Source: a candidate division TA06 bacterium SM23_40 (lineage in GTDB: Bacteria > LJUI01 > SM1-40). From it: a DNA stretch of 36,318 nt. Positions 1 to 27,877 of this stretch are shown here, piece by piece. The stretch spans positions 1 through 36,318 of the forward strand of contig LJUI01000030.1 in assembly GCA_001303705.1 (NCBI GenBank). Reading direction: 5' to 3'. Positions within the stretch are counted from its first letter, which is position 1. Each line of letters starts with the position of its first letter. The notes below the pieces were generated by a model that was not told the DNA's origin, made no database searches, and worked only from the letters and a program-made list of their open reading frames with translations. The position numbers were made by a program, and so were the translations under genes.

Positions 1-1569
1 TTCGAAACAGGGCAACAATGGCTGCAAGCTGTCGCGACGGAGTATGGGGGGGAGGAGGTCGCGGCATGGGCACGTCGAGACCTTGCGCGGCGTGCTGCCT
101 CATCGGGGGATTGGCAGGCTGCGTCGAGGCACTACGAGGCAGTACTGGAGAATCCCGCGCCTGAGGAGCTTGCCGAAGAAGCCATGTTCGGCCGTGGCGA
201 GTGCTGGTTTCGACTGGGAGCGTACGACGCCTGTTCTGACGCATTAGAGCAGTTCCTCGAGCTCTATCCGCACAGCGCGCTCGTCGCCGAGGCCGCCTAC
301 TTCCGGGCAATGTCGCTCGCACAGCTCGGGCTGCACGAGGAGGCGCTCGGTCATCTCGCCGAGTTTGAACAGGCCTACCCCGACGATGAACGCCTTCCCG
401 ACGTCCTTCTGGCCAGAGGCGATATGTTGCTCGAGATCGGACGCGAGCGCGCCGCGGCCGATCTGTACATGCGACTCAGTGAAGGCTATCCCTCTACTGC
501 GGCCGGCTGGGAGGGAGGGGTAAGGGCGGCCGATGCGCTGTTCGCGGCAGGAGACTATGAGTCCGCGCTCTCTGCCTATCGTCGTGTTCGAGAAGCCGTG
601 CCGGCTGAACAGGGTCAGACGCTGCGGGCCGGGGAGATCGCATGCCTGTTCAGGCTCGGGCACGTCCAGCGGGCGCTCGCCGCCGCCGAAGCCTTCGCGA
701 GCGATTTCGGTTCACATGCTCCCGGGATGGTGAGGATTCAATATGAAAAGGGGCGAAACCACCTCGAGCGGGGAGAGATCGGCGAGGCGATCGAGGTACT
801 CCGGCTGGCCCTTGAACGGCCGGACAACTCACCGTATCTGGGCGAGGTGATGTACGCGCTCGGCATCGCGAGGATGCGATCCGCCGATCTGGAAGGGGCT
901 ATCTCCCTGTTCCGGCAGGTACGTGAGTTGGAGCCTGGAGGTCGTCTCAGCAGAGAGGCGGCATTCAAGATGGGTTCGTGCCTGTACGGACTGGAGGAGT
1001 ATGAACAGGCAGCCGTCGCGTACCGGGCCGCCGCCGACACGTCGCCTGGTGGAGCGATGTCGGATGCGTCTCTGGCCGAGAGCGCGCTGTACAATCTGGC
1101 CGTGACAGAGCGCAGACGCGGTGAGTTCGGGGGCGCGATCAAGACAGCAGAAGAGTTGCTCGAACGGTTCCCCGGCAGCGAACACAGGACCGCGGCGCTG
1201 TTGCTGGTCGGGGGAGTCTATCAGGAGCAGGAGGATTACATCTCAGCACTCGAGGCTTATCGGTCGATCACTCAGTTCTCCTCGGATCTGGAAGAGGCCG
1301 AGGTCCGTTTCTGGATTGCCGAGTGTCTGCTCTCCCTCGGGGAGCCCCTCGAGGCTGCATCCGAGTTTCTCTCCCTCGTCTATCACTTCCCGGATCAGGG
1401 GCTCTGGACAGTCACCGCCGAGTACAGGTCGGGCGTGGCATATGAGGATGCGGGGAAGGTAAGGGAGGCAGTGGAGATCTATCGGGGCCTGATAGCCGAC
1501 CGCCCCGAGGGGGATGAATGGGCTCAGGCGGCACGGGAGAGGCTGGAGGCGCTCGGAGGAGGCCAATAG
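1..1569 (+). CDS. Tetratricopeptide-repeat protein (BamD/CpoB-like TPR array), 5'-truncated
   Basis: Frame is open from base 1 to TAG at 1567-1569. Repeated TPR helices end in YP.S/FP.S turns (LELYPHS, ERFPGS, YHFPDQ), and the C-terminus is 'AQAARERLEAL'. Confidence 0.85.
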   Translation, partial: FETGQQWLQAVATEYGGEEVAAWARRDLARRAASSGDWQAASRHYEAVLENPAPEELAEEAMFGRGECWFRLGAYDACSDALEQFLELYPHSALVAEAAYFRAMSLAQLGLHEEALGHLAEFEQAYPDDERLPDVLLARGDMLLEIGRERAAADLYMRLSEGYPSTAAGWEGGVRAADALFAAGDYESALSAYRRVREAVPAEQGQTLRAGEIACLFRLGHVQRALAAAEAFASDFGSHAPGMVRIQYEKGRNHLERGEIGEAIEVLRLALERPDNSPYLGEVMYALGIARMRSADLEGAISLFRQVRELEPGGRLSREAAFKMGSCLYGLEEYEQAAVAYRAAADTSPGGAMSDASLAESALYNLAVTERRRGEFGGAIKTAEELLERFPGSEHRTAALLLVGGVYQEQEDYISALEAYRSITQFSSDLEEAEVRFWIAECLLSLGEPLEAASEFLSLVYHFPDQGLWTVTAEYRSGVAYEDAGKVREAVEIYRGLIADRPEGDEWAQAARERLEALGGGQ

Positions 1570-1753
1570 TTCATTCTTATCCTTACGTGATGCACGTAGG
1601 CTCCAATTTCTCGGGGAGTTACGCGTTTTGACAAGACGATGCCTCGGACCGGGATCCTGCGGGATTCGTCTGTGCGGAGGCGTCTGGCCGACGCGGCAGG
1701 AGCGGCGATGCCCGATCGGGAGGATGGACAACGAACCGGCCCCCAATCCGGGC

Positions 1754-1783
1754 TTGACCACGGGGACACGATCGCGTTATATT
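1754..1783 (+). promoter_or_regulatory. Putative sigma70 promoter of the Cys-rich cluster
   Basis: TTGACC(1754-1759)-N18-TATATT(1778-1783) in an AT-richer patch. The palindrome ATGT-A-ACAT follows at 1787-1795. Confidence 0.5.
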
Positions 1784-1873
1784 GAGATGTAACATGATCC
1801 TACCGCAAACACCTCGCCTGGCGAGCAGGCGGCGGGGATGAAGGGAGTCCGCCGAGGACAAGAGGCCCACACG

Positions 1874-2284
1874 ATGCGATTCCAGATCATCTGTCTACTC
1901 ACTGCACTTGCCATCACCGGTTCGGGTCTCGCTGCCTCACAGGTTCAGAGGTCTGGAGGCAGCCAGATCTGCGCCGGCCGCGAGGCTCCACGACAACCCG
2001 TGCGGGACGCGGGTTGCACGTGCGGCCCGGCCGCGTGCGGCCTGGCGTGCGGGCCGGCGGTATGTGTCGCTCTCGAGATGGAGTGTACCTGTGGCCCCTC
2101 ATCGGTGGAGAGCTCAGCGGCAACTAGCCCGATGCCGAGAATCAGCGGGGACGTGCCCCTGCCCCCGACAGAGCTTCGGGTGCGCCTCGTGTCGTGCTCC
2201 CTGACAGTCCTTGTCGATGTCCTGCCGCAATCATTCGATGGCGAACCCCCTGAGGAGCCTCCTCGTACGTTGTTGCGTCTTTAG
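1874..2284 (+). CDS. Secreted Cys-rich small protein with Pro-rich C-terminus (DUF2946-like leader candidate)
   Basis: ATG 1874 follows GAGG. Signal peptide MRFQIICLLTALAITGSGLA, core GCTCGPAACGLACGPAVC...ECTCGP, C-terminus GEPPEEPPRTLLRL. Confidence 0.6.
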   Translation: MRFQIICLLTALAITGSGLAASQVQRSGGSQICAGREAPRQPVRDAGCTCGPAACGLACGPAVCVALEMECTCGPSSVESSAATSPMPRISGDVPLPPTELRVRLVSCSLTVLVDVLPQSFDGEPPEEPPRTLLRL

Positions 2285-2481
2285 TGGAGCAGGTGTCTGG
2301 GCCGGAACCGGGATGGGCGCCGCCTGCGAGTGCGGTACCAGCGTCGAGCACTGTGTCGGCGTGGCTCCAGGGTAGAAGAGCGTCCTGGCCTGGCTGCCGT
2401 CGCCGGAGTTCCTGCCGGCTGCATCGGGGCCGGTACAGGGCAAGCCTCAATCAACACGAATGTGAGAAGAGGGAGGAACCC

Positions 2482-3321
2482 ATGAACAAGTATCTGTACA
2501 CTATCGTGCTTGTCATCGTGGTCGCATTAGCGGCGGGAGCATTCTGGGGGTGCCAGCGCGAGCAAGCAGAGCTGTGCGCCATGTGTTCCAAGGAGATTCC
2601 TGCCAGGACGGGCGCCAGGCTCGTCTCCACGGCCGACGAGACGTACTACACGTGCTGCGCCCACTGTGCACTGCTCCTGGCGTCCCGGGCGGGCGACGAG
2701 GGAACGTCCTTCAGACTCATGAAGACCAAGGGCTACGAGACAGGCGATGTCATCGATCTGCCAGAGGCCTTCTTCGTCTATGGATCGGACGTTGTTCCCT
2801 GTTGCGTCCCATCAGTGCTGGCATTTGCCAGTCGCGAGCGGGCAGAGGAGTTTGCCCGGCGCGAGGGCGGTGAGGCACTCGATTGGGGCGGGGCGCGCGC
2901 CACGCTCGCTCTCGAGGCCGGGGATCAGTGTGAGATGTGCTCTAAGAGCCTCGATATCGAGGCCGCCAAGCCGACTGCCCTCCTCCTCGCCAGCGGCGGA
3001 GATCGTGTCGCCTGCTGTCCCCACTGCGCGTTCATGCTGGAGAAGATGCTCGCGGATCGTACAGATGAGCGGGTAGAAGAGATGTGGACCACCGGTGAGG
3101 ATGGCAAGCTGTTCCGCGTCGGCGACGAGACGCGGTTCGTCGCCGACAGCGACGCACCGATCTGCTGCACCCCGATGGTGGTGCCGTGTGCCTCGGAGGA
3201 GGCCGCGAGTGCGTTTATCTCTGAGCACGGAGGCAGGATGCTCGATATGGATGAAACGCGAGCGCTGATGCATGAGCACGCCGGGGAGGGGCGCCACAGC
3301 GGACGCCCTAGTAGTGGATAG
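2482..3321 (+). CDS. Lipoprotein with two tandem NosL-like Cys-rich domains
   Basis: ATG 2482 follows GGGAGGA. Lipobox-like FWGC. Two repeats of CxxC...CCxHC...CC, each ending like NosL (AFASRERAEEFARREGG; ASEEAASAFISEHGG). Confidence 0.75.
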   Translation: MNKYLYTIVLVIVVALAAGAFWGCQREQAELCAMCSKEIPARTGARLVSTADETYYTCCAHCALLLASRAGDEGTSFRLMKTKGYETGDVIDLPEAFFVYGSDVVPCCVPSVLAFASRERAEEFARREGGEALDWGGARATLALEAGDQCEMCSKSLDIEAAKPTALLLASGGDRVACCPHCAFMLEKMLADRTDERVEEMWTTGEDGKLFRVGDETRFVADSDAPICCTPMVVPCASEEAASAFISEHGGRMLDMDETRALMHEHAGEGRHSGRPSSG

Positions 3322-3449
3322 AGGTGACGTCCGGATGCAGACGATTGTGACAAACGTGAGGCGCAGTCGAAGAGGGTGCAGTTGAGCGCGCCGCCAGAAC
3401 AGGTTGAACGCCGTGCAGGAAGAGAGGGAAGCCTCAGAAGGAGAATCAT

Positions 3450-3797
3450 GTGGAGAAGCGAGGACTGACAGCCGCCCTGATCATCGTCGTGCTCATCGCT
3501 GCGGTGATGGCGAGCTTTGCCGAGCGTCGAATAGAGGGGCGGCTCGAGGCAGAAAGGCTGGTGGCCCGGCGGGCGTTGCTCCAGTCGCTGGGTGTCTCAT
3601 CGCTCGCTGTCACATCTGAATGCACCCTGGTGCGCAGTCTCACCGAGGGTCTCAGCGGGTGCTTAGGGGACGTGCCGGGTGGGTACTGCACATATACGAG
3701 TTGCGATGTCGTGACGCTCCCTGATTTCGAGACAGATTTCGCATTCGAGCTACGCATCGTGAGGAAGACGAAAGATGGGGATGGCGAAACACCGTAA
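3450..3797 (+). CDS. Small membrane-anchored hypothetical protein with four Cys
   Basis: GTG 3450 follows AAGGAG. N-terminal TM helix, then SEC...GCLGDVPGGYCTYTSC. Overlaps the permease start. Confidence 0.7.
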   Translation: MEKRGLTAALIIVVLIAAVMASFAERRIEGRLEAERLVARRALLQSLGVSSLAVTSECTLVRSLTEGLSGCLGDVPGGYCTYTSCDVVTLPDFETDFAFELRIVRKTKDGDGETP

Positions 3798-4971
3798 TCT
3801 CTGGTCGGTTGCTGCATACAATCTCTGGCGGTACCGGCCGAGGACGATCGCCATCCTGCTGCCTCTGGTCGTCGTGATGGGGACTGCGGGGTCGGTGACG
3901 TTCGTGCGCGACGGCCTGAGCCGGGATGCGTCGCTAACAGTGGCGATGCTTCCCGACATCACGGTGCAACAGCTTGTCGGCGGCCGCGTCGAGAGGATGG
4001 CACTCTCCTACGGTGACTCGCTCCGAGCCGTCGAGCACGTCATCAGCGCCGTCCCCAGAGTCTGGGGGTACGTTCCCGTGAGCGTACCTGGAGGTGAGGC
4101 AGCGTACACCCTGATGGGCATCGACCTGGAGCGTATGCCGATCGCCGAGGAGATCGGACTGAGCGTGGAGAAAGGGAGGTTCCTCGTTGCGGGAGACGTC
4201 GATGAGGCAGTCGTGGGGAAGGCGTTTGCCTCGGTCTTCCGGCTCGAGGTCGGCGACAGGATCAACCTCGAGGATGCCCTGGGGAATGAGGCGGAACTCC
4301 AGATCGTCGGTGTCTTCGGCACCGCGGTCGAGATCTACGCGGCAGATCTCCTCGTCGTTTCGCTCGAGACGGCGCGCAAATTCTTCGGGTACCTGGAGAG
4401 CGAGGCGTCGGATTTCTGTGTGTACCTCGATGATCCGGTGTACGCCGACCTGGCGGCGCAGCGGATCCTTGAGATCGGTAACAATCTCCGCGTACTGACA
4501 CGGGATGCCCTCGGGGAACTCACACAGCAAGCCTATGGGGGCCGGGGCGGCGTGTTTCAGCTCATGTGGATGATCCTGCTGCTCACCGTCTGCCTCGTGG
4601 CCTGGGCCCAGAGCGCGAGCATCGGGCTTGCACTGAGGCGGGAGATTGGGATATTGAAGGCCATTGGATGGGGGACTCTTGACATCATCGAAGTTAAAAT
4701 GCTGGAGACCGTCATCATCGCGCTCCTCGGCACATTCGGCGGGATACTGCTCGGCCTGGGGTACCTGGGGCTCGGTGCGCCCGGGATCAAGCAGTACTTC
4801 CTTGGATGGGCGACGGTATATCCGGAGTTTGCCGTGCCGATCTACATGAGCGTCAAGAGCCTGTTTCTGCTGCTCGTTGTGGGAATCTTTCCGCTCCTTG
4901 TGGCAACGGTGGTACCGGCCTGGCTGGTGGGGATCATCGAGCCCGATGAGGCGATCCGCGGCGAGCAGTGA
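3775..4971 (+). CDS. ABC transporter permease, FtsX/MacB/LolE (type VII) family
   Basis: One N-terminal TM, a large periplasmic domain (GRFL...EAVVGKAFA...L.VGD), RREIGILKAIGW, three C-terminal TMs, and the ending 'IEPDEAIR'. Confidence 0.9.
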   Translation: MGMAKHRNLWSVAAYNLWRYRPRTIAILLPLVVVMGTAGSVTFVRDGLSRDASLTVAMLPDITVQQLVGGRVERMALSYGDSLRAVEHVISAVPRVWGYVPVSVPGGEAAYTLMGIDLERMPIAEEIGLSVEKGRFLVAGDVDEAVVGKAFASVFRLEVGDRINLEDALGNEAELQIVGVFGTAVEIYAADLLVVSLETARKFFGYLESEASDFCVYLDDPVYADLAAQRILEIGNNLRVLTRDALGELTQQAYGGRGGVFQLMWMILLLTVCLVAWAQSASIGLALRREIGILKAIGWGTLDIIEVKMLETVIIALLGTFGGILLGLGYLGLGAPGIKQYFLGWATVYPEFAVPIYMSVKSLFLLLVVGIFPLLVATVVPAWLVGIIEPDEAIRGEQ

Positions 4972-5079
4972 CCAGGTCGAATTAGACCTAGAACAAGGAC
5001 ACTGTTGTTGGCATGTGAGCAGTGGCGCCGTCTGGTTGGTGTTGCTGTGTGACCAGCACAACGAACGTGGATGTGACTC

Positions 5080-5790
5080 GTGACAGCTGCCATTCAGCTC
5101 GAGAACGTGAGCAAGATCTTCTACTCCGGAAGAGAGAGAGTCGAGGCCGTGAAGGAGCTCACCTGTGCGATCGAGGCTGGTGAGGTGGTGCTGTTCAGCG
5201 GCCCCTCGGGAAGCGGGAAGAGCACGCTCCTCAACATGGTGGGCTGCCTGACGAGGCCTACGGTTGGTCGGGTCTTTCTGCGGGGCCGCGAGGTGTCACG
5301 GCTGGCCGACCATTTCCGGAGCGATGTGCGCCGCAATGAAATGGGATTCATCTTTCAACAATTCAACCTGCTTCCCGGATACTCAGCTCTCGACAATGTT
5401 GCGATGCCGCTCGTGCCTCTCGGGCTCCGGGCGAGTGAGAGGCGGGAGCAGGCCGGCATTCTACTGGAGCGGCTTGGCATGTCGCACCGGGCCAGCTTCG
5501 CGGCGAACGAACTGAGCGGGGGCGAGCAGCAGCGGGTGGCGATCGCCCGGGCCCTCGTGGGCGATCCCTGGCTCATTCTCGCAGATGAGCCAAGCTCTAA
5601 CGTTGACATGAAGACGGCACATAGACTGCTCTCCATCTTCTCCGAATTCAAGAAGGAAGGGAAGACACTCGTCATTGCATCTCACGATCAGATGCTGCTA
5701 GAGAGCGATCTCATCGATCGGGAGCTTGTGCTTCCGGATGGAGAGTGGGTGCGGCGTGGACGGTCGCAGGCGCCACCCACGGCGGTGTAA
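5080..5790 (+). CDS. ABC transporter ATP-binding protein (LolD/MacB-like)
   Basis: Walker [11 protein letters not shown]-loop GFIFQQFNL, signature [15 protein letters not shown], Walker B ILADEP, H-switch ASHD. Confidence 0.93.
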
Positions 5791-5804
5791 CAGAGGGTAT
5801 CGTA

Positions 5805-6776
5805 ATGGTCATCAGCGGGCTGACCGTGACCTATCTTCTCATCTCAGTCCTCACGTTGGTGGTCGCCATACCGGCTGCAGTCGTCGCCTTCGTCGTGGCG
5901 CGCCACTGGAGGCCGGAGTCAGGATTGGAGCAGCAACACCAGCTCGAGCGGTGGGTCTATCTCGTCATCACGCTCGTGGCTCTCGGGCTCTCACTCCGCC
6001 TCGGGCTCGTGCCGCTCTGGTTCCTCACGCTCTGGAGTCTGATATCGTATGTGCCTGGAGCCATGTGCCTCGCGGGGATGCACATGTTGTATCCGCCGTG
6101 GTCGTTCGTGGCCTCTGCTCTCAAGTTCGTCGTGCCTCTCATGTACGGGTACTGGTTGGTACTCAATGCGCTCGACAGGAAAATAGAAAGTCAGCCGTTC
6201 ATGCGTCGGAAGCTCTTCCTGCAGGCGCCTATTGCTCTACTGGTCCTCGTGGAGAGTAGTCTCGATTTCCGCGTTCTGGCGGCCGTCGAGCCCCGGAGCG
6301 TCAGCTGCTGCACATCGCTATTCGATATGCCGACGACAGCTGTGACGAAGGCCATCTCGTCGAGCACCCCGGTATGGGCCTGGACGTTTGTCGTCCTGGC
6401 CCTGGCCGTTATAGCGTTAGCGCTCGTGGTCCGTCGGATGCCAGCCATACCCCTGAGGGCTGCACTCGTCGTTGCAGCTGCGGCCACGCTGCCGATCTAC
6501 ATACTGGCGCTCCACACGAAGCTCTCCCCTCTTCTTCTCCATGCACCATTCCACCATTGCGTGTTCTGCGTCATGCAGATGTCAGTCGACATACCCGTAG
6601 CCAGCGGCCTCATCATCTCCGGGTGCTGGCTATCCTTCGTGGCGGGAGTCCTTCCCTCCGGCGTCGAGCAGGATGTGTACAGGGGGCTCCTGGACAAGCT
6701 CCTGCGCCTGTCGGTCGGAACACTTGCTGTTGGTGGTATCATGCTGGCGGTTCGGGTTTTTGTGACGGTTCTGTGA
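5805..6776 (+). CDS. Polytopic membrane protein with Cys/His motifs
   Basis: ATG 5805. About 8 hydrophobic segments, with loop motifs VPGAMC, VSCCTS and HHCVFC. Confidence 0.8.
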   Translation: MVISGLTVTYLLISVLTLVVAIPAAVVAFVVARHWRPESGLEQQHQLERWVYLVITLVALGLSLRLGLVPLWFLTLWSLISYVPGAMCLAGMHMLYPPWSFVASALKFVVPLMYGYWLVLNALDRKIESQPFMRRKLFLQAPIALLVLVESSLDFRVLAAVEPRSVSCCTSLFDMPTTAVTKAISSSTPVWAWTFVVLALAVIALALVVRRMPAIPLRAALVVAAAATLPIYILALHTKLSPLLLHAPFHHCVFCVMQMSVDIPVASGLIISGCWLSFVAGVLPSGVEQDVYRGLLDKLLRLSVGTLAVGGIMLAVRVFVTVL

Positions 6777-6818
6777 CGGCCGAAGAATTGGAGAGGTCGA
6801 GGACATTGTGTGAATGCA

Positions 6819-6840
6819 TTGACATGAAGTTCATTCATGT
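6819..6840. promoter_or_regulatory. Inverted repeat ACATGAA-N5-TTCATGT overlapping a TTGACA box; putative operator
   Basis: Perfect 7-5-7 inverted repeat at 6822-6840, TTGACA at 6819-6824, AT-rich intergenic setting. No convincing -10 at normal spacing. Confidence 0.45.
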
Positions 6841-6908
6841 GATGAGAGAGCCATAAGATACTACCAGCAACGTTCACTGAACGAACAGAAGACGTTGGAG
6901 GTTTCATC

Positions 6909-7859
6909 GTGCGAATAAGAGGCTGGATGGATACGGTGCCGATGCTCGCAGTAGTGGTGGTGATCTTCGTTGGGATGTGGAGCGGCGGATGCGCGGAGCG
7001 CAGGAAGCCGGGTGATACTGCGCCAGTTCTGCTCCAGGAGATCGATCGTGTCGAACTCCTGTACTCCGAGGATGGCTTCCGCGAGGCGATGCTTGTGGAG
7101 GTGCTGGGAGTGGGGCTGAACACCCCCGAGGCCGAGACTTATCGCTTCGACGTGGGTATTGTCGATACACTTCCTCTCGGAGAGACCCTTCTCTTTCCCA
7201 CCGAGAACCCGCTGGCGGTCTATACGTTCTATGGCAGAGAGTACGCGCTCCCGTGGCTCCTCGAGGAGGCAGGGGAGACGAAGCGGCTCCGGTTCGAGCT
7301 ATCCGATGTGCCGGCCATCGACCTCGATCAGGCGGTGACGTGCACGGTAAGTGATCAGTGTGGTGGGGCGTGCAGTGTCTGTTTCCAGTACTCGACGACG
7401 TGGAGAGGGGAGCAAGGGGAATGGGGCGACCTCGCCTTCGTCACATCGAAGAGTTCGATCCCCATCGGACGGGCCACCAATGTCGATGTCCTCATCTCCG
7501 TCAAGACAGGGATTCTCCGTGACGCCGTCTGCAGCATCATCATTCCCGTCCGCGTGAGAGGAGCACGCATCGGGCTCCGCGACGCCCCACAGGAGATGAC
7601 GGTGCAGCGGCACGATCGGTGGCTTCAACTCACCGGAGAGGTGAAGGGTGGCGTAGACACTTACTCAGTATCGATTGCAGTTGAGCCCTCTCTTCCGGGC
7701 ACGGTTGCCGTGCGGGACTTCGTCGTGGTGCGCGGGAATCTACCGGGTCTCATCGCATCCCCGGCGGCTGTGGTTACGGATCGGGAGGTCACGCGGACGA
7801 CCGGTACCGAGATCTACCACCGCGGAGATCTCCATATCACGGCAATGCAGGCTGACTAG
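6909..7859 (+). CDS. Hypothetical lipoprotein with a Cys cluster
   Basis: GTG follows GGAGG. Hydrophobic stretch ends in the lipobox SGGC; internal CTVSDQCGGACSVC; beta-rich remainder. Confidence 0.7.
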   Translation: MRIRGWMDTVPMLAVVVVIFVGMWSGGCAERRKPGDTAPVLLQEIDRVELLYSEDGFREAMLVEVLGVGLNTPEAETYRFDVGIVDTLPLGETLLFPTENPLAVYTFYGREYALPWLLEEAGETKRLRFELSDVPAIDLDQAVTCTVSDQCGGACSVCFQYSTTWRGEQGEWGDLAFVTSKSSIPIGRATNVDVLISVKTGILRDAVCSIIIPVRVRGARIGLRDAPQEMTVQRHDRWLQLTGEVKGGVDTYSVSIAVEPSLPGTVAVRDFVVVRGNLPGLIASPAAVVTDREVTRTTGTEIYHRGDLHITAMQAD

Positions 7860-7865
7860 AGCAGG

Positions 7866-7894
7866 TTGACTTTTGATGTTGAACATGGTAGTGT
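7866..7894 (+). promoter_or_regulatory. Putative sigma70 promoter of uvrA
   Basis: TTGACT(7866-7871)-N17-TAGTGT(7889-7894), preceded by TG. Palindrome ATGTT-G-AACAT (7876-7886) in the spacer. Confidence 0.55.
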
Positions 7895-7928
7895 CGGCAC
7901 GGTGATCAAGTCTGCGAAGGAGAGGATC

Positions 7929-10775
7929 GTGGCTTCAAACCGTGCCATCGTCGTTAAGGGTGCGAGAGAGCACAACCTCAAGAATATCGATGTGACGATC
8001 CCGCGAGACAAGCTCGTCGTCGTCACCGGGCTCTCCGGCTCCGGGAAGTCCTCTCTGGCCTTCGACACGATCTATGCCGAAGGCCAGCGGCGTTATGTAG
8101 AGTCGCTCAGTGCGTATGCTCGCCAGTTTCTGGGGGTGATGGAGAAGCCGGACGTCGACGCAATCGAGGGGCTGTCGCCGGCAATATCGATAGAGCAGCG
8201 AAAGGCCGCCCGAAACCCCCGATCTACGGTGGCGACAGTCACGGAGATCTACGACTATCTGCGGGTTCTGTTTGCGCGGATCGGCATCCCTCACTGCTAC
8301 AAATGCGGCCGTCTCATCGCCAGCCAGACGGTCAGTCAGATTGTCGATGCTGTGCTTTCTCTGGGAGAGGGAGCGAGGGTCCAGATTCTTGCACCACTCA
8401 TCAGAGGGCGGAAGGGCGAGCATCTTCGCGTGCTCCGACTGGCAAAGTCCCGCGGGTACGTGCGGGCCCGGATAGACGGCAAGGTGATCGATCTCGATGA
8501 GCTCCCGGCCCTCGACAAGAAGAAGGCGCATACCATCGAGCTGGTGATCGATCGGCTTGTCGTCAAGAACAAGGCGAAGCGCCGCCTTGCCGATTCGATC
8601 GAGACTGCACTCCGCGAGGGGGATGGTGTCATCATCATCGATCGCGGGCAGGCAGGCGAACAGGTCTATAGTGAACACTGTGCCTGCATCGAGTGCGGGA
8701 TCAGCTATGAGGAGCTTTCGCCCCGGATGTTCTCGTTCAACAGTCCGTATGGCGCATGCCCGACCTGCGGCGGGCTGGGGACCAGGCTGGAGATAGACCC
8801 CCAGCTCCTCATCGTCAACTCTGAGCTCTCGATCCTGGAGGGAGCGATCGGTCCGTGGGGGGAGCCGACGTCTCGCTGGCTCCTCACCCAGCTGGAGATG
8901 TTGCAGGAACGGCATGGTGTCGATCTCGATGCGCCGTACGGGAGTCTCGGCGAGGATGCCGAGCGGATCTTGCTGTACGGAACAGAGCCCGAGGGTGGAG
9001 CTGTGCCTGGAGAGGGGCGCGGCCGTGACGAAGAGAGATGGCGGTTTGAAGGAGCCATCCCCATGCTTATGCGTCGGTACCGTGATACACAATCGGATTG
9101 GGTCCGTCATGATATCGAGCGGTACATGAGTATACTCACCTGTCCGGCCTGCCGAGGTGCGCGGCTCCGGAAAGAGAGCCTGTCGGTTCGCGTCTGCGGG
9201 CTCTCGATCTCCGAGCTAGTCAGCATGTCGGTCAAGCGAGCGCACGCCTTCTTCTCCAGCGAGCTGGAGTTGAACGGGCGGGAGAAGGTAATCGGAGAAC
9301 AGGTGAAGGCAGAGATATCGGCGCGGCTGGGGTTCCTGGTCGACGTGGGCCTCGATTATCTGACGCTCGATCGGTCCACCGACTCTCTCTCCGGCGGGGA
9401 GGAGCAGCGCGTACGATTGGCAACGCAGATCGGCAGCGGGTTGACAGGTGTCCTGTACATCCTCGACGAGCCATCCATCGGGCTCCATCAGCGCGACAAT
9501 CGGCGCCTGCTCGATACCCTCACCCGGCTTCGCGATCTCGCCAATACAGTAGTCGTGGTCGAGCACGACCGTCAGATCATTTCTGCCGCTGATCACGTGA
9601 TCGATCTCGGACCGGGGGCGGGAGAGCTGGGTGGGCACGTCGTCGCCACCGGCACTCCGGCGGAGATTGCGGAAGAGAACGGGTCGCTCACCGGGGCGTA
9701 CCTGGCGAGGAGACGCTCGATCGAGACCCCCGGTCGGCTGCGGCGCCCGAAGAAGGGATGGCTGGTCGTCACGGGGGCAGCGGCGAATAACTTGAAGTCG
9801 ATCGACGTCCACATCCCGCTCGGGCTCTTCGTCTGCGTGACCGGTGTTTCGGGATCAGGAAAGAGCACTCTGGTCAACGACATACTCTATCGCGCACTTG
9901 CCCAGCGGTTCTACCGTTCACGCCGCCCTCCGGGGGCGTACGACCAGATCCTTGGGGTGGAGGAGATAGACAAGGTTATCAATATCGACCAGTCGCCCAT
10001 CGGGAGGACACCCCGGTCGAACCCGGCCACGTACACCGGCAGCTTCTCCTACATCCGCGAGCTCTTCGCTTCTGTACCGGAATCGAGGGTGCGCGGCTAT
10101 CGTCCCAGGCGGTTCAGTTTCAATCTCAAGGGCGGACGATGTGAGGCATGCGCAGGCGACGGGATCATCAAGATCGAAATGCACTTTCTTCCTGACGTCT
10201 ATGTGCTGTGTGAGTTGTGCAAAGGGAAACGTTTCAACCGCGAGACCCTCGAGATCACCTATAAGGGGAAGACGATCAGTGACGTGCTCGAGATGACGGC
10301 CGATGAGGCCATGCGGTTCTTCGGGGCGGTGCCGAAGATAAAGCGGAAGCTGAAACTCCTGGCCGATGTCGGACTCGGATACATCAAGCTGGGTCAGCCG
10401 GCGCCGACCCTGTCGGGCGGAGAAGCCCAGCGGATCAAGTTGGCCAAGGAACTGTCAAAGGTCGGCACTGGGAGTACACTCTACATTCTCGATGAGCCGA
10501 CGACCGGACTCCACTTCGAAGACGTGAAGATGCTCCTCAGGGTTCTCGACAGGCTGGTCGCAAAGGGCAACACGGTGCTCGTCATCGAGCACAATCTGGA
10601 CGTCATCAAGTGTGCCGATTGGGTTATCGACCTCGGGCCGGAGGGCGGGGACGACGGTGGTGATATTGTCGTCGCGGGACCGCCGCAGGAGATAGAGGAA
10701 TCGAGAACTTCCTATACCGGCGCTTATCTCCGTCGTGACCGAGAGGAGGAGCGTCTCTCTATGGCCAGCCCGTGA
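7929..10775 (+). CDS. uvrA: Excinuclease ABC subunit A
   Basis: [10 protein letters not shown], two Walker A motifs ([18 protein letters not shown]), [19 protein letters not shown], zinc fingers, LSGGEAQR. Start placed at GTG 7929 after GAGAGGA. Confidence 0.98.
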
Positions 10776-27100: not shown

Positions 27101-27177
27101 GCGCCCGTAGCTCAACTGGATAGAGCAACGGACTACGAATCCGTAGGTTAGAGGTTCGAATCCCCTCGGGCGCGCCA
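27101..27177 (+). tRNA. tRNA-Arg(ACG)
   Basis: Acceptor stem GCGCCCG/CGGGCGC, anticodon stem ACGGA/TCCGT with loop CT-ACG-AA, GGTTCGAATCC, encoded CCA. Confidence 0.97.
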
Positions 27178-27787: not shown

Positions 27788-27877
27788 GGAGAGATGGCCG
27801 AGTCTGGTTGAAGGCGCACGACTCGAAATCGTGTATCCCTTCGGGGATCGGGGGTTCGAATCCCTCTCTCTCCGCCA
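27788..27877 (+). tRNA. tRNA-Ser(CGA)
   Basis: Acceptor stem GGAGAGA/TCTCTCC, anticodon stem CACGA/TCGTG with loop CT-CGA-AA, long variable arm, GGTTCGAATCC, G discriminator plus CCA. Confidence 0.97.

Follow-up and report, generated by a model that had tools for sequence, protein, structure and literature searches.

A conserved five-gene module joining a NosL-type lipoprotein, a MacB/FtsX-type ABC transporter, and a new family of eight-helix membrane proteins: a candidate periplasmic copper relay independent of nosZ

To our knowledge, NosL has so far been understood only as a chaperone for the CuZ site of nitrous oxide (N2O) reductase, NosZ. Contig LJUI01000030.1 of the candidate division TA06 bacterium SM23_40 (36,318 nucleotides, all of which was analyzed and is called the window here) raises the question of what a NosL-type lipoprotein does when its gene stands beside those of an ATP-binding cassette (ABC) transporter and several Cys-rich proteins and no nosZ is present. 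In the initial annotation of this DNA, seven co-oriented open reading frames (ORFs) were read as an ATP-driven envelope machine for a thiophilic metal; all seven ORFs, and all the Cys/His motifs quoted for them, are present as placed. We find that the conserved unit consists of five genes, encoding the NosL-type lipoprotein, a small transmembrane (TM) protein, a permease, an ATPase, and an 8-TM protein. This module is real, conserved, widespread, and uncharacterized, and the 8-TM protein (g6) represents a new membrane-protein family and is the most distinctive and best-conserved component, a standing that went unrecognized in the initial annotation.

A five-gene module conserved across phyla

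The five genes of the conserved unit, with the basis of each assignment, are as follows.

2482..3321 (ATG at 2482), + strand: g2, tandem NosL-type lipoprotein (Pfam NosL; lipobox-like AFWGC)
3450..3797, + strand: g3, small one-TM protein with four Cys (sequence; alignment of 19)
3775..4971, + strand: g4, MacB/FtsX-type (type VII ABC) permease (Pfam FtsX; hydropathy)
5080..5790, + strand: g5, ABC ATPase of the LolD/FtsE/MacB group (Pfam ABC_tran; NCBIfam)
5805..6776, + strand: g6, 8-TM membrane protein of 323 amino acids (aa), undescribed family (PGAMC, SCC, HHCVFC)

The g3 and g4 genes overlap by 23 nucleotides, and the remaining intergenic gaps are short. Genome contigs queried with the single g6 protein gave no relatives, and the loci described here were found with a g6 alignment. 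In a first sample, scans with this alignment that were seeded by its motifs yielded 21 genome loci and 41 metagenome loci (numbered with the prefix L below). Five of the metagenome loci were dropped, one being the window's own sequence (L034) and four being duplicates of genome loci (L036, L045, L052, and L055). According to their record titles, the genome loci belong to Omnitrophota, Desulfobacterota/Syntrophales, Lentisphaerae, Vulcanimicrobiota, Gemmatimonadota, Bacillota, and Acidobacteriota.

Partners were counted in the nonredundant loci of this sample with purpose-built hidden Markov models. The permease and ATPase genes adjoin the g6 homologue in 24 of the 32 loci that have at least 2.5 kb of upstream sequence, and g3 is present in 19 of the 32. 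Where the sequence extends for at least 2.5 kb upstream and for 1.5 kb or more downstream (21 loci), a NosL gene lies within 6 kb in 13. Eight of 54 loci show no partner at all, and in 6 of these 8 the sequence ends, on one side or both, within ~330 bp of the gene. When 404 neighboring ORFs were clustered, the same five families emerged (g6 in 52 loci, ATPase in 31, NosL and permease in 25 each, and g3 in 16), and no other neighbor family recurred in more than three loci.

For a second, independent sample, 301 genomes were taken evenly from across the phylum to which one carrier belongs, and 51 of them contain matches to the g6 profile. In the best 30 loci, taken with 1.5-kb flanks, g6 adjoins the ATPase gene 26 times and the permease gene 25 times. 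Twenty loci were extended by ~8 kb on each side, and the order NosL(s), small TM protein, permease, ATPase, g6 is found in 14 of them; 4 of the 20 have g6 without the ABC pair (L108 and L123 to L125), one more is cut at the permease, and one has no detectable permease. Co-occurrence of the cluster genes in other genomes, which the initial annotation had named as a test of its reading, is thus seen across phyla and in two samples. We found no description in the literature of the combination of NosL, a FtsX/MacB-type ABC transporter, and a g6-type membrane protein.

Several loci carry further genes around the module. In an Omnitrophota locus, the module is followed at a distance of 2 kb by a second, more typical MacB-type permease/ATPase pair (L013:13095-14964; MacB_PCD, 71 bits; FtsX, 66 bits) and then by a caspase-domain (Peptidase_C14) gene. 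In L014, the sequence ahead of the module, ~2.5 to 7 kb upstream of the g6 homologue, encodes an adaptor of the HlyD type, an ABC ATPase in duplicate, and a pair of ABC-2 permeases; these genes are a separate exporter. A duplicated ATPase occurs at the same position in related Desulfobacterales-type loci (L021, L022, L026, L044, L049, and L060). All 60 of the relatives returned by the genome search are related to the source organism at the domain level only, and one of them has a g6 homologue; the organism seems to lack close sequenced kin in the searched genome collection.

The 8-TM protein founds an undescribed family

The relatives of g6 in a 90%-clustered database number 41, all of them ~320 to 340 aa long and all without names. 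A profile of 21 relatives recovered 1154 representatives (50% identity) at E values of ≤0.001 among 1.84 billion proteins, 821 of them at ≤1e-10 and 229 at ≤1e-30. Residues C88, C168, C169, H250, C252, and C255 are invariant across the 21 sequences. Among 71 diverse members, with identities down to 17%, G85, C88, and W117 are invariant, and C168, C169, H250, C252, and C255 are each retained in 90% or more. None of the models in Pfam and NCBIfam matches more than one of these 71 members. A search of the ESM Atlas with g6 returned only “hypothetical protein” clusters (Nitrospirota, Thermodesulfobacteriota, and Planctomycetota), and tblastn of g6 against plasmids gave no match.

An AlphaFold2 (AF2) model of g6, computed from the 21-sequence alignment, has a pLDDT of 90.1 and a pTM of 0.85 and contains eight long helices. 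These are arranged in two four-helix bundles (residues 1 to 165 and 183 to 320), with a low-confidence loop after the SCC motif. Foldseek returned no match to the model at E values of ≤0.001, and the matches listed by exhaustive structure alignment are generic bundles only, the top one being a designed bundle with a Z score of 14.2, which is at chance level for helical models. Matches to cytochrome b, cytochrome bd, and CcmF were indistinguishable from this helical-bundle background and were not taken as a sign of heme binding. An identity with CopD/PcoD (PF05425) was rejected, as neither g6 nor the 71 family members match that model at E values of ≤0.01. In a predicted complex of g6 with the first NosL repeat, the scores (0.26 and 0.16, against a mark of 0.32) carry no weight either way.

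The distribution of Lys and Arg residues was used to orient the protein. Across the 71 members, loops 1-2, 3-4, 5-6, and 7-8 (9 to 13 residues) each carry ~2.0 such residues; the N terminus and the Cys/His loops 2-3 and 6-7 carry 0.1 to 0.5 (0.35 to 0.51 for those two loops), and the long (32-residue) Cys loop 4-5 carries 2.0. Because of this distribution, and because a lipoprotein domain resembling the product of the downstream gene g7 is fused after TM8 in one relative (see below), all three Cys/His motifs are predicted to lie on periplasmic loops. The conserved residues E48, K107, D124, and E150 map to the helices of the first bundle or to their ends, and g6 has no conserved cytoplasmic Cys pair.

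Such a layout might also belong to a membrane thiol-disulfide oxidoreductase resembling DsbB or VKOR, which would maintain the redox state of the Cys-rich partners and carry no metal. Each half of g6 is modeled as a four-helix bundle, a CxxC motif lies at the predicted periplasmic start of TM7, and a Cys pair sits on a flexible loop (pLDDT 54 to 67, residues 170 to 190), an arrangement that we take to resemble that of DsbB/VKOR. Genes for ResA/TlpA-like proteins adjoin the module NosL in two loci (L111:11785-12351 and L120:11192-11728), and their products may keep the Cys sites reduced. However, neither g6 nor its family has a Pfam or NCBIfam sequence match to DsbB or VKOR, neither protein is among the fold matches listed (generic helical bundles only, a listing that does not decide against such a fold), and the two His residues right before the CxxC motif, together with the intrahelical acidic and basic residues, would equally fit a metal site or an ion path. 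We regard a metal-free redox role as improbable; an oxidoreductase reading of g6 is nevertheless compatible with a role in copper handling.

The NosL-type lipoprotein has Cys-rich tandem repeats

The g2 protein matches Pfam NosL (PF05573) in two stretches with 55.9 bits (cut-off, 24), and its two halves are the only NosL matches in the genome (31.9 and 25.6 bits). Each half has CxMC, CCxHC, and CC motifs, a TRASH/treble-clef-like Cys set, and the N terminus (MNKYLYTIVLVIVVALAAGAFWGC) is lipobox-like as judged by reading the sequence. Residues C33, C36, C59, C60, and C63 are invariant in 19 module-linked NosL proteins. Only some of these have the third CC pair, and others have a GSM motif in its place. 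At positions where relatives hold Met-containing motifs (GVMT and GPMG), the window NosL has CC, which would amount to thiolate replacing thioether. Similarity to solved NosL chains is weak (E value = 0.36), and the aligned residues differ, with CC in g2; a weak DUF5947 match was also seen.

The available portions of PMC13685413 and PMC7558416 describe NosL as a Cu(I) chaperone that docks on, and hands copper to, an ABC-driven periplasmic machine, and a TRASH-like fold common to NosL and MerB is reported in the accessible text of PMC10114901. The match of g2 to MerB (PF03243) is below the cut-off (16.9 versus 27 bits). The second half of the NosL partner is MerB-like in two other loci (L030 and L032) and exceeds the cut-off there (52.7 and 35.7 bits; E values of 5.4e-14 and 9.7e-9).

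The ABC pair belongs to the type VII class but not to its characterized families

The g3 protein is predicted to have one N-terminal TM helix followed by a periplasmic domain, and the motif D-x-PGG-[YF]-C-x-H-x-x-C-D occurs in 17 of 19 aligned sequences. The permease, g4, matches Pfam FtsX with 29.6 bits (cut-off, 25.5) and has hydrophobic segments at residues 25 to 43, 260 to 278, 304 to 332, and 362 to 380, leaving a periplasmic domain of ~215 aa between TM1 and TM2. With an FtsX domain, four predicted TM helices, and a large extracytoplasmic domain, it has the features of a type VII ABC (MacB/FtsX-type) permease. MacB_PCD was matched in eight g4 homologues and was not matched in the window g4 at E values of ≤0.1. 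The ATPase, g5, matches Pfam ABC_tran with 106.7 bits, and its Walker A, signature, Walker B, and H-loop motifs are intact by eye. Its NCBIfam scores for LolD (195.9 bits), FtsE (190.0 bits), and MacB (189.3 bits) are all under the equivalog cut-offs.

These matches bear on another account of the cluster, that of a generic MacB/Lol-type exporter or lipoprotein handler with incidental Cys-rich neighbors. In NCBIfam, g4 and g5 do match LolCE and LolD best, and g2 and g7 are predicted lipoproteins. The scores are nevertheless far under the Lol equivalog cut-offs (LolCE, 49.3 versus 362.45 bits; LolD, 195.9 versus 307.75 bits), and a LolCDE identity of the pair was rejected on this basis. A dedicated function is favored by the tight linkage to g6 and NosL across phyla and by the conservation of the Cys/His sets, and we consider a generic exporter highly improbable. 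By architecture, the module is assigned to the type VII ABC class and stands outside the characterized families of that class.

The module is independent of nosZ

The genome of the source organism (2.88 Mb in 189 contigs, 89.8% complete) was searched for nosZ, NosD, and other copper proteins. It contains no clade I or clade II nosZ, its best match to the clade III enzyme (L-NosZ; NCBIfam NF052460) scores 27.6 bits against a cut-off of 700, and its best NosD match scores 30.5 bits against a cut-off of 300. The absence of nosZ and nosD noted for the window in the initial annotation is thus borne out there and extends to the genome at this level of completeness. A weak Lactonase/L-NosZ match on contig C166 was rejected as a generic beta-propeller repeat protein (32.6 bits against 700 for L-NosZ, with no cupredoxin domain). 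No COX2/CuA domain and no multicopper oxidase were found in the genome. Four HMA-domain matches were found. One frame among them is 837 aa long and contains two HMA domains, and another is 91 aa long; by size and domain content only, these two frames may be read as CopA-like and CopZ-like, respectively. CopD was found in none of the 16 carrier genomes searched for it, the source genome included.

In the 22 other carrier genomes examined, nosZ exceeds the cut-off in just one; this gene is of clade II and is not on the contig that bears the module, and clades I and III are represented over the cut-off in none. The cluster does not strictly track nosZ. Absence from a draft genome is no proof, and the pattern is consistent with a module that is independent of nosZ. 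Assignment of g2 as a nos accessory protein was rejected for want of nosZ and NosD in the source genome, and membership of the module in NosDFY was rejected because no NosD exceeds the cut-off anywhere in that genome and g4 is FtsX-type.

Is there another client for copper loading?

If nosZ is not the client, the module could still load copper into another periplasmic cuproenzyme, such as a multicopper oxidase or the product of the gene that follows g6, in the way that NosDFYL does for NosZ. The initial annotation had proposed the latter product as the client.

6927..7859 (ORF from 6909), + strand: g7, lipobox-like lipoprotein (WSGGC), all-beta, with a C-x5-C-x3-C-x2-C cluster

Close relatives of g7 in the database are itself and one metagenome protein at 74% identity; g7-like proteins occur in 4 of 54 nonredundant related loci (L012, L031, L032, and L039). 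In the five aligned sequences, C145, C151, and C155 (window-ORF numbering) are invariant and the fourth Cys is not. The AF2 model of g7 (pLDDT 71) is all-beta, with two sandwich-like domains, and fold searches gave generic mu-homology and Ig-like sandwich matches only; the Ig-like match of the C-terminal domain to YcnI (Z score, 9.2; root mean square deviation, 2.4; 112 aligned residues) is tied with those of many unrelated Ig-like folds. In a 629-aa protein (P0059, L031:9875-11764), a g6 homologue runs from TM8 straight into a g7-like domain in a single frame, and the junction (…LLSGCAGGG…) resembles a lipoprotein signal peptide that doubles as TM8. Because of this fusion and the sparse distribution, g7 appears to be an optional periplasmic accessory of g6. 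A client role accords less well with the rarity of the lipoprotein and its fusion to the C terminus of the 8-TM protein, and g7 looks like an accessory periplasmic domain present in a minority of lineages.

Cuproenzyme maturation retains some attractions. Multicopper-oxidase genes adjoin the module or a g6 homologue in three loci (L120, L123, and L125), NosL is known only as a maturation chaperone in the available portions of PMC13685413 and PMC7558416, and the available part of PMC13068155 proposes that a NosDFYL locus without NosZ serves another cuproenzyme in Parageobacillus. The conserved Cys cluster of g7 would also fit. Against this, the source genome has no multicopper oxidase, COX2/CuA protein, or nosZ of any clade, g7 is rare and once fused to g6, and no recurrent client family appears in the neighborhoods. 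We consider maturation of a client rather unlikely. Detoxification or homeostasis is preferred over cofactor loading in this organism because its genome has no detectable multicopper oxidase, CuA, or NosZ client.

Which metal does the module handle?

Neighbors were annotated for copper functions in 11 of the 20 extended second-sample loci and in 11 first-sample loci. Six of the 11 annotated second-sample loci have a further copper gene within 5.5 kb. L123 and L125 each contain a run of three genes that resemble those of multicopper oxidases, after which come the g6 homologue, the gene for a CusB-like adaptor that includes a heavy-metal-binding domain, that for an RND pump, and NosL. In both of these regions (L123:3236-15418 and L125:1353-13782), two of the oxidase-like genes encode ~405- to 460-aa products and one is a weak match, and g6 stands without the ABC pair. 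The order in L120 is NosL, NosL, a CueO-like oxidase (179.9 bits), a ResA/TlpA-like thiol-disulfide oxidoreductase, a small protein, FtsX, ABC, and g6. YtkA-like proteins are encoded in L113 and L118, a CusB-like gene is also present in L118, and Cu-oxidase_2 proteins are encoded in L115 and L118. One NosL type in the second-sample loci has Met/His-rich C-terminal tails; Met-rich tails are typical of Cu(I)/Ag(I) sites. The g6 homologues of this sample are 25 to 31% identical to the window g6, with GAMC and SCC kept in 13 of 13 checked and HHCPFC in 12 of 13. Copper is favored because of the NosL homology and because copper-resistance genes neighbor this sister g6 subfamily. The evidence for copper is indirect but convergent.

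Several observations weigh against a copper-specific, ABC-driven module. The copper neighbors stem from a subfamily only 25 to 31% identical to the window g6, and 1 of the 11 annotated first-sample loci, which include closer relatives, has a copper-named neighbor (MctB in L032). A Fur-family regulator is encoded directly upstream in L013, tungsten/molybdenum enzymes are encoded in L029, and in L017 (324-10247) and L023 (306-8440) the module is flanked on the same strand by Fe-S and coenzyme A (CoA)-disulfide-reductase-like genes. The window itself has no gene for a membrane-fusion or outer-membrane partner, so that an outer-membrane efflux route is not evident. Linkage is also incomplete, as 8 of 32 g6 loci lack a full adjacent permease and ATPase pair (seven have neither, and one has the ATPase only), 8 of 21 well-flanked loci have no NosL nearby, and only 14 of 22 carrier genomes have a Pfam NosL match. 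Since one-fourth of the loci with sufficient upstream sequence lack the full pair, g6 can therefore work apart from it. Finally, all-Cys sites would also suit Zn, Cd, Hg, Ni, or sulfane sulfur.

In L017 and L023 (Syntrophales-type), NifU-type, FeS_assembly_P, ParA/ferredoxin, and DUF1847 genes are found upstream, and the downstream genes resemble those of CoA-disulfide reductases, with a rhodanese domain in one of them; these flanks hint at a link to Fe-S or persulfide metabolism. The RND pumps in L013 and L015 are unspecific.

A cargo other than copper, namely, Zn, Cd, Hg, Ni, sulfane sulfur, or a metal-sulfide species, with trafficking tied to Fe-S or persulfide metabolism, would account for the all-Cys sites, for the vicinal CC pairs of g2 and g6, and for the contexts in L017, L023, and L013. 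It would also sit well with the MerB-like NosL halves in L030 and L032 and with the TRASH-like fold common to NosL and MerB (PMC10114901, in the part available). On the other hand, L017 and L023 come from related organisms and amount to about one observation, no mer genes were seen, copper contexts are commoner (6 of the 11 annotated second-sample loci), and the Met-rich tails of the relatives' NosL proteins are of the Cu(I)/Ag(I) type. A noncopper cargo thus appears unlikely, and copper remains the metal of choice below.

Flanking features of the cluster

Two further features lie upstream of the module.

1754..1783, + strand: sigma-70-like promoter match upstream of g1 (TTGACC-18-TATATT, 10/12 matches; weak, consensus only)
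1874..2284, + strand: g1, orphan Cys-rich ORF of 136 aa with a signal-peptide-like N terminus and CTCGP twice

Sigma-70-like sites number 3 in the region, versus 1.4 expected from shuffles. Relatives were found elsewhere for six of the seven ORFs of the cluster, the exception being g1, which has no relatives among 63 related loci and whose sole match in a protein database of 5.8 billion proteins is itself. Its codon-position GC contents (0.66/0.60/0.69) are atypical compared with those of neighboring genes (~0.65/0.44/0.74), and its predicted product would be a secreted-type peptide with 10 Cys. It could be a lineage-specific gene or a noncoding ORF; its coding status is uncertain, and it falls outside the conserved module. 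The place that the initial annotation gave g1 in the cluster was not confirmed. Conservation of the Cys motifs, which was also expected there, holds beyond chance in the relatives of four of the five Cys-rich ORFs (g2, g3, g6, and g7), the fifth being the orphan g1.

The cluster is preceded by a TPR/YbgF-like gene (to 1569) and followed by uvrA (from 7866). The remainder of the window is housekeeping in content, with genes for glycine cleavage, PolX, LeuRS, and isocitrate/isopropylmalate dehydrogenase and two tRNAs. These tRNA genes (27101-27174 and 27788-27874, + strand), both far from the cluster, are the sole Rfam matches in the window; the Rfam scan found no element in positions 1 to 8000 and no riboswitch.

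Comparison with known systems

The module resembles NosDFYL in that a NosL-family lipoprotein is encoded beside an ABC system. In NosDFYL, the ATP cycle of the ABC transporter drives periplasmic Cu(I) handover, according to the available part of PMC13685413. The module differs in having no NosD over the cut-off, a MacB/FtsX-type permease with 4 TM helices rather than the ABC-2-type NosY, a NosL that is Cys-rich and tandem, and two extra components, g3 and g6. With the type VII ABC systems (MacAB-TolC, LolCDE, FtsEX, and HrtBA) it shares a permease that ends in an FtsX domain and has four TM helices and a large domain in the periplasm, as well as a separately encoded ATPase of the LolD/FtsE/MacB kind; mechanotransmission is the mode of action expected of this class. 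Unlike those systems, the module scores under the equivalog cut-offs and has no membrane-fusion or TolC-like gene in the window; the characterized systems, in turn, lack g6, g3, and NosL neighbors.

CopCD/PcoCD and YcnI-YcnJ, which combine a periplasmic copper chaperone with an 8-TM inner-membrane protein, are alike by analogy only, as are pco/cop operons with their multicopper oxidase, which may be compared with the loci that hold oxidases, a g6 homologue, and NosL together (L123 and L125). The ligands of CopC and CopD are His and Met, whereas those of the module are Cys-rich, and g6 has no sequence match to CopD. In MerT/MerP-type relays, a soft metal passes from a periplasmic Cys-pair protein to the vicinal Cys pairs of a membrane protein. 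The module is similar in that respect and in the TRASH-like fold of NosL and MerB (PMC10114901, in the part available), but it includes an ABC motor, its 8-TM protein g6 lacks a conserved pair of cytoplasmic Cys residues, and no mer genes were seen. Clade III (lactonase-type) nosZ clusters, set beside the module by description only, are reported to carry, instead of nosDFYL, a MacB-type ABC transporter together with b-type cytochromes of the membrane (PMC13477213 and the available part of PMC13685413). They share the MacB-type transporter with the module and differ from it in that they are said to be without NosL, whereas the module is without L-NosZ (none of 22 carriers over the cut-off).

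A proposed copper relay and its significance

The notion of an ATP-driven envelope machine for a thiophilic metal remains the best fit to the evidence, with copper as the favored metal. We propose, with moderate confidence, that the module is an ATP-driven periplasmic Cu(I) relay for detoxification that is independent of nosZ, being analogous to NosDFYL but outside it; the identity of the metal and the direction of its transfer are part of this proposal. The NosL-type lipoprotein g2 would capture Cu(I) in the periplasm, as its family membership suggests, with Cys residues here replacing the Met ligands of its relatives. In keeping with their class, g4 and g5, together with g3, would convert cytoplasmic ATP hydrolysis into a periplasmic conformational change, a mechanotransmission of the sort that NosDFY performs for NosL. 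The g6 protein would offer a membrane-embedded, periplasm-facing thiolate/imidazole site, made up of five Cys and two His residues on three loops, that accepts or donates metal. Metal exchange between g6 and NosL is suggested by the conserved motifs and the predicted topology, and we infer that the proteins of the module are in physical contact and that ATP plays the role described. In the organism itself, the net effect would be the clearance, sequestration, or buffering of periplasmic Cu(I), that is, homeostasis or detoxification.

More tentatively, g6 may found a widespread, unrecognized family of membrane metal sites. Together with a type VII ABC motor, a g3-type adaptor, and NosL, it would possibly constitute a second ATP-driven periplasmic relay for copper (or copper-sulfur), independent of N2O reductase and evolutionarily distinct from NosDFY, that clears Cu(I) in anaerobes or feeds multicopper oxidases by an all-thiolate pathway.

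Roughly one-sixth of the genomes sampled from a major anaerobic phylum, along with members of several other phyla, have NosL as part of a conserved module without nosZ. This module includes a sizeable family of membrane proteins, comprising 1154 clusters at 50% identity, for which there is no name, domain model, or solved relative. Cu(I) is most toxic in the absence of oxygen. If the cargo is copper, the module would supply a missing piece in our understanding of how strict anaerobes withstand Cu(I), as many carriers lack CopD and the source genome also lacks multicopper oxidases. It would, in that case, provide a second example of ABC mechanotransmission applied to metal handover, and it would advise caution in the use of nosL as a marker of N2O reduction in metagenomes.

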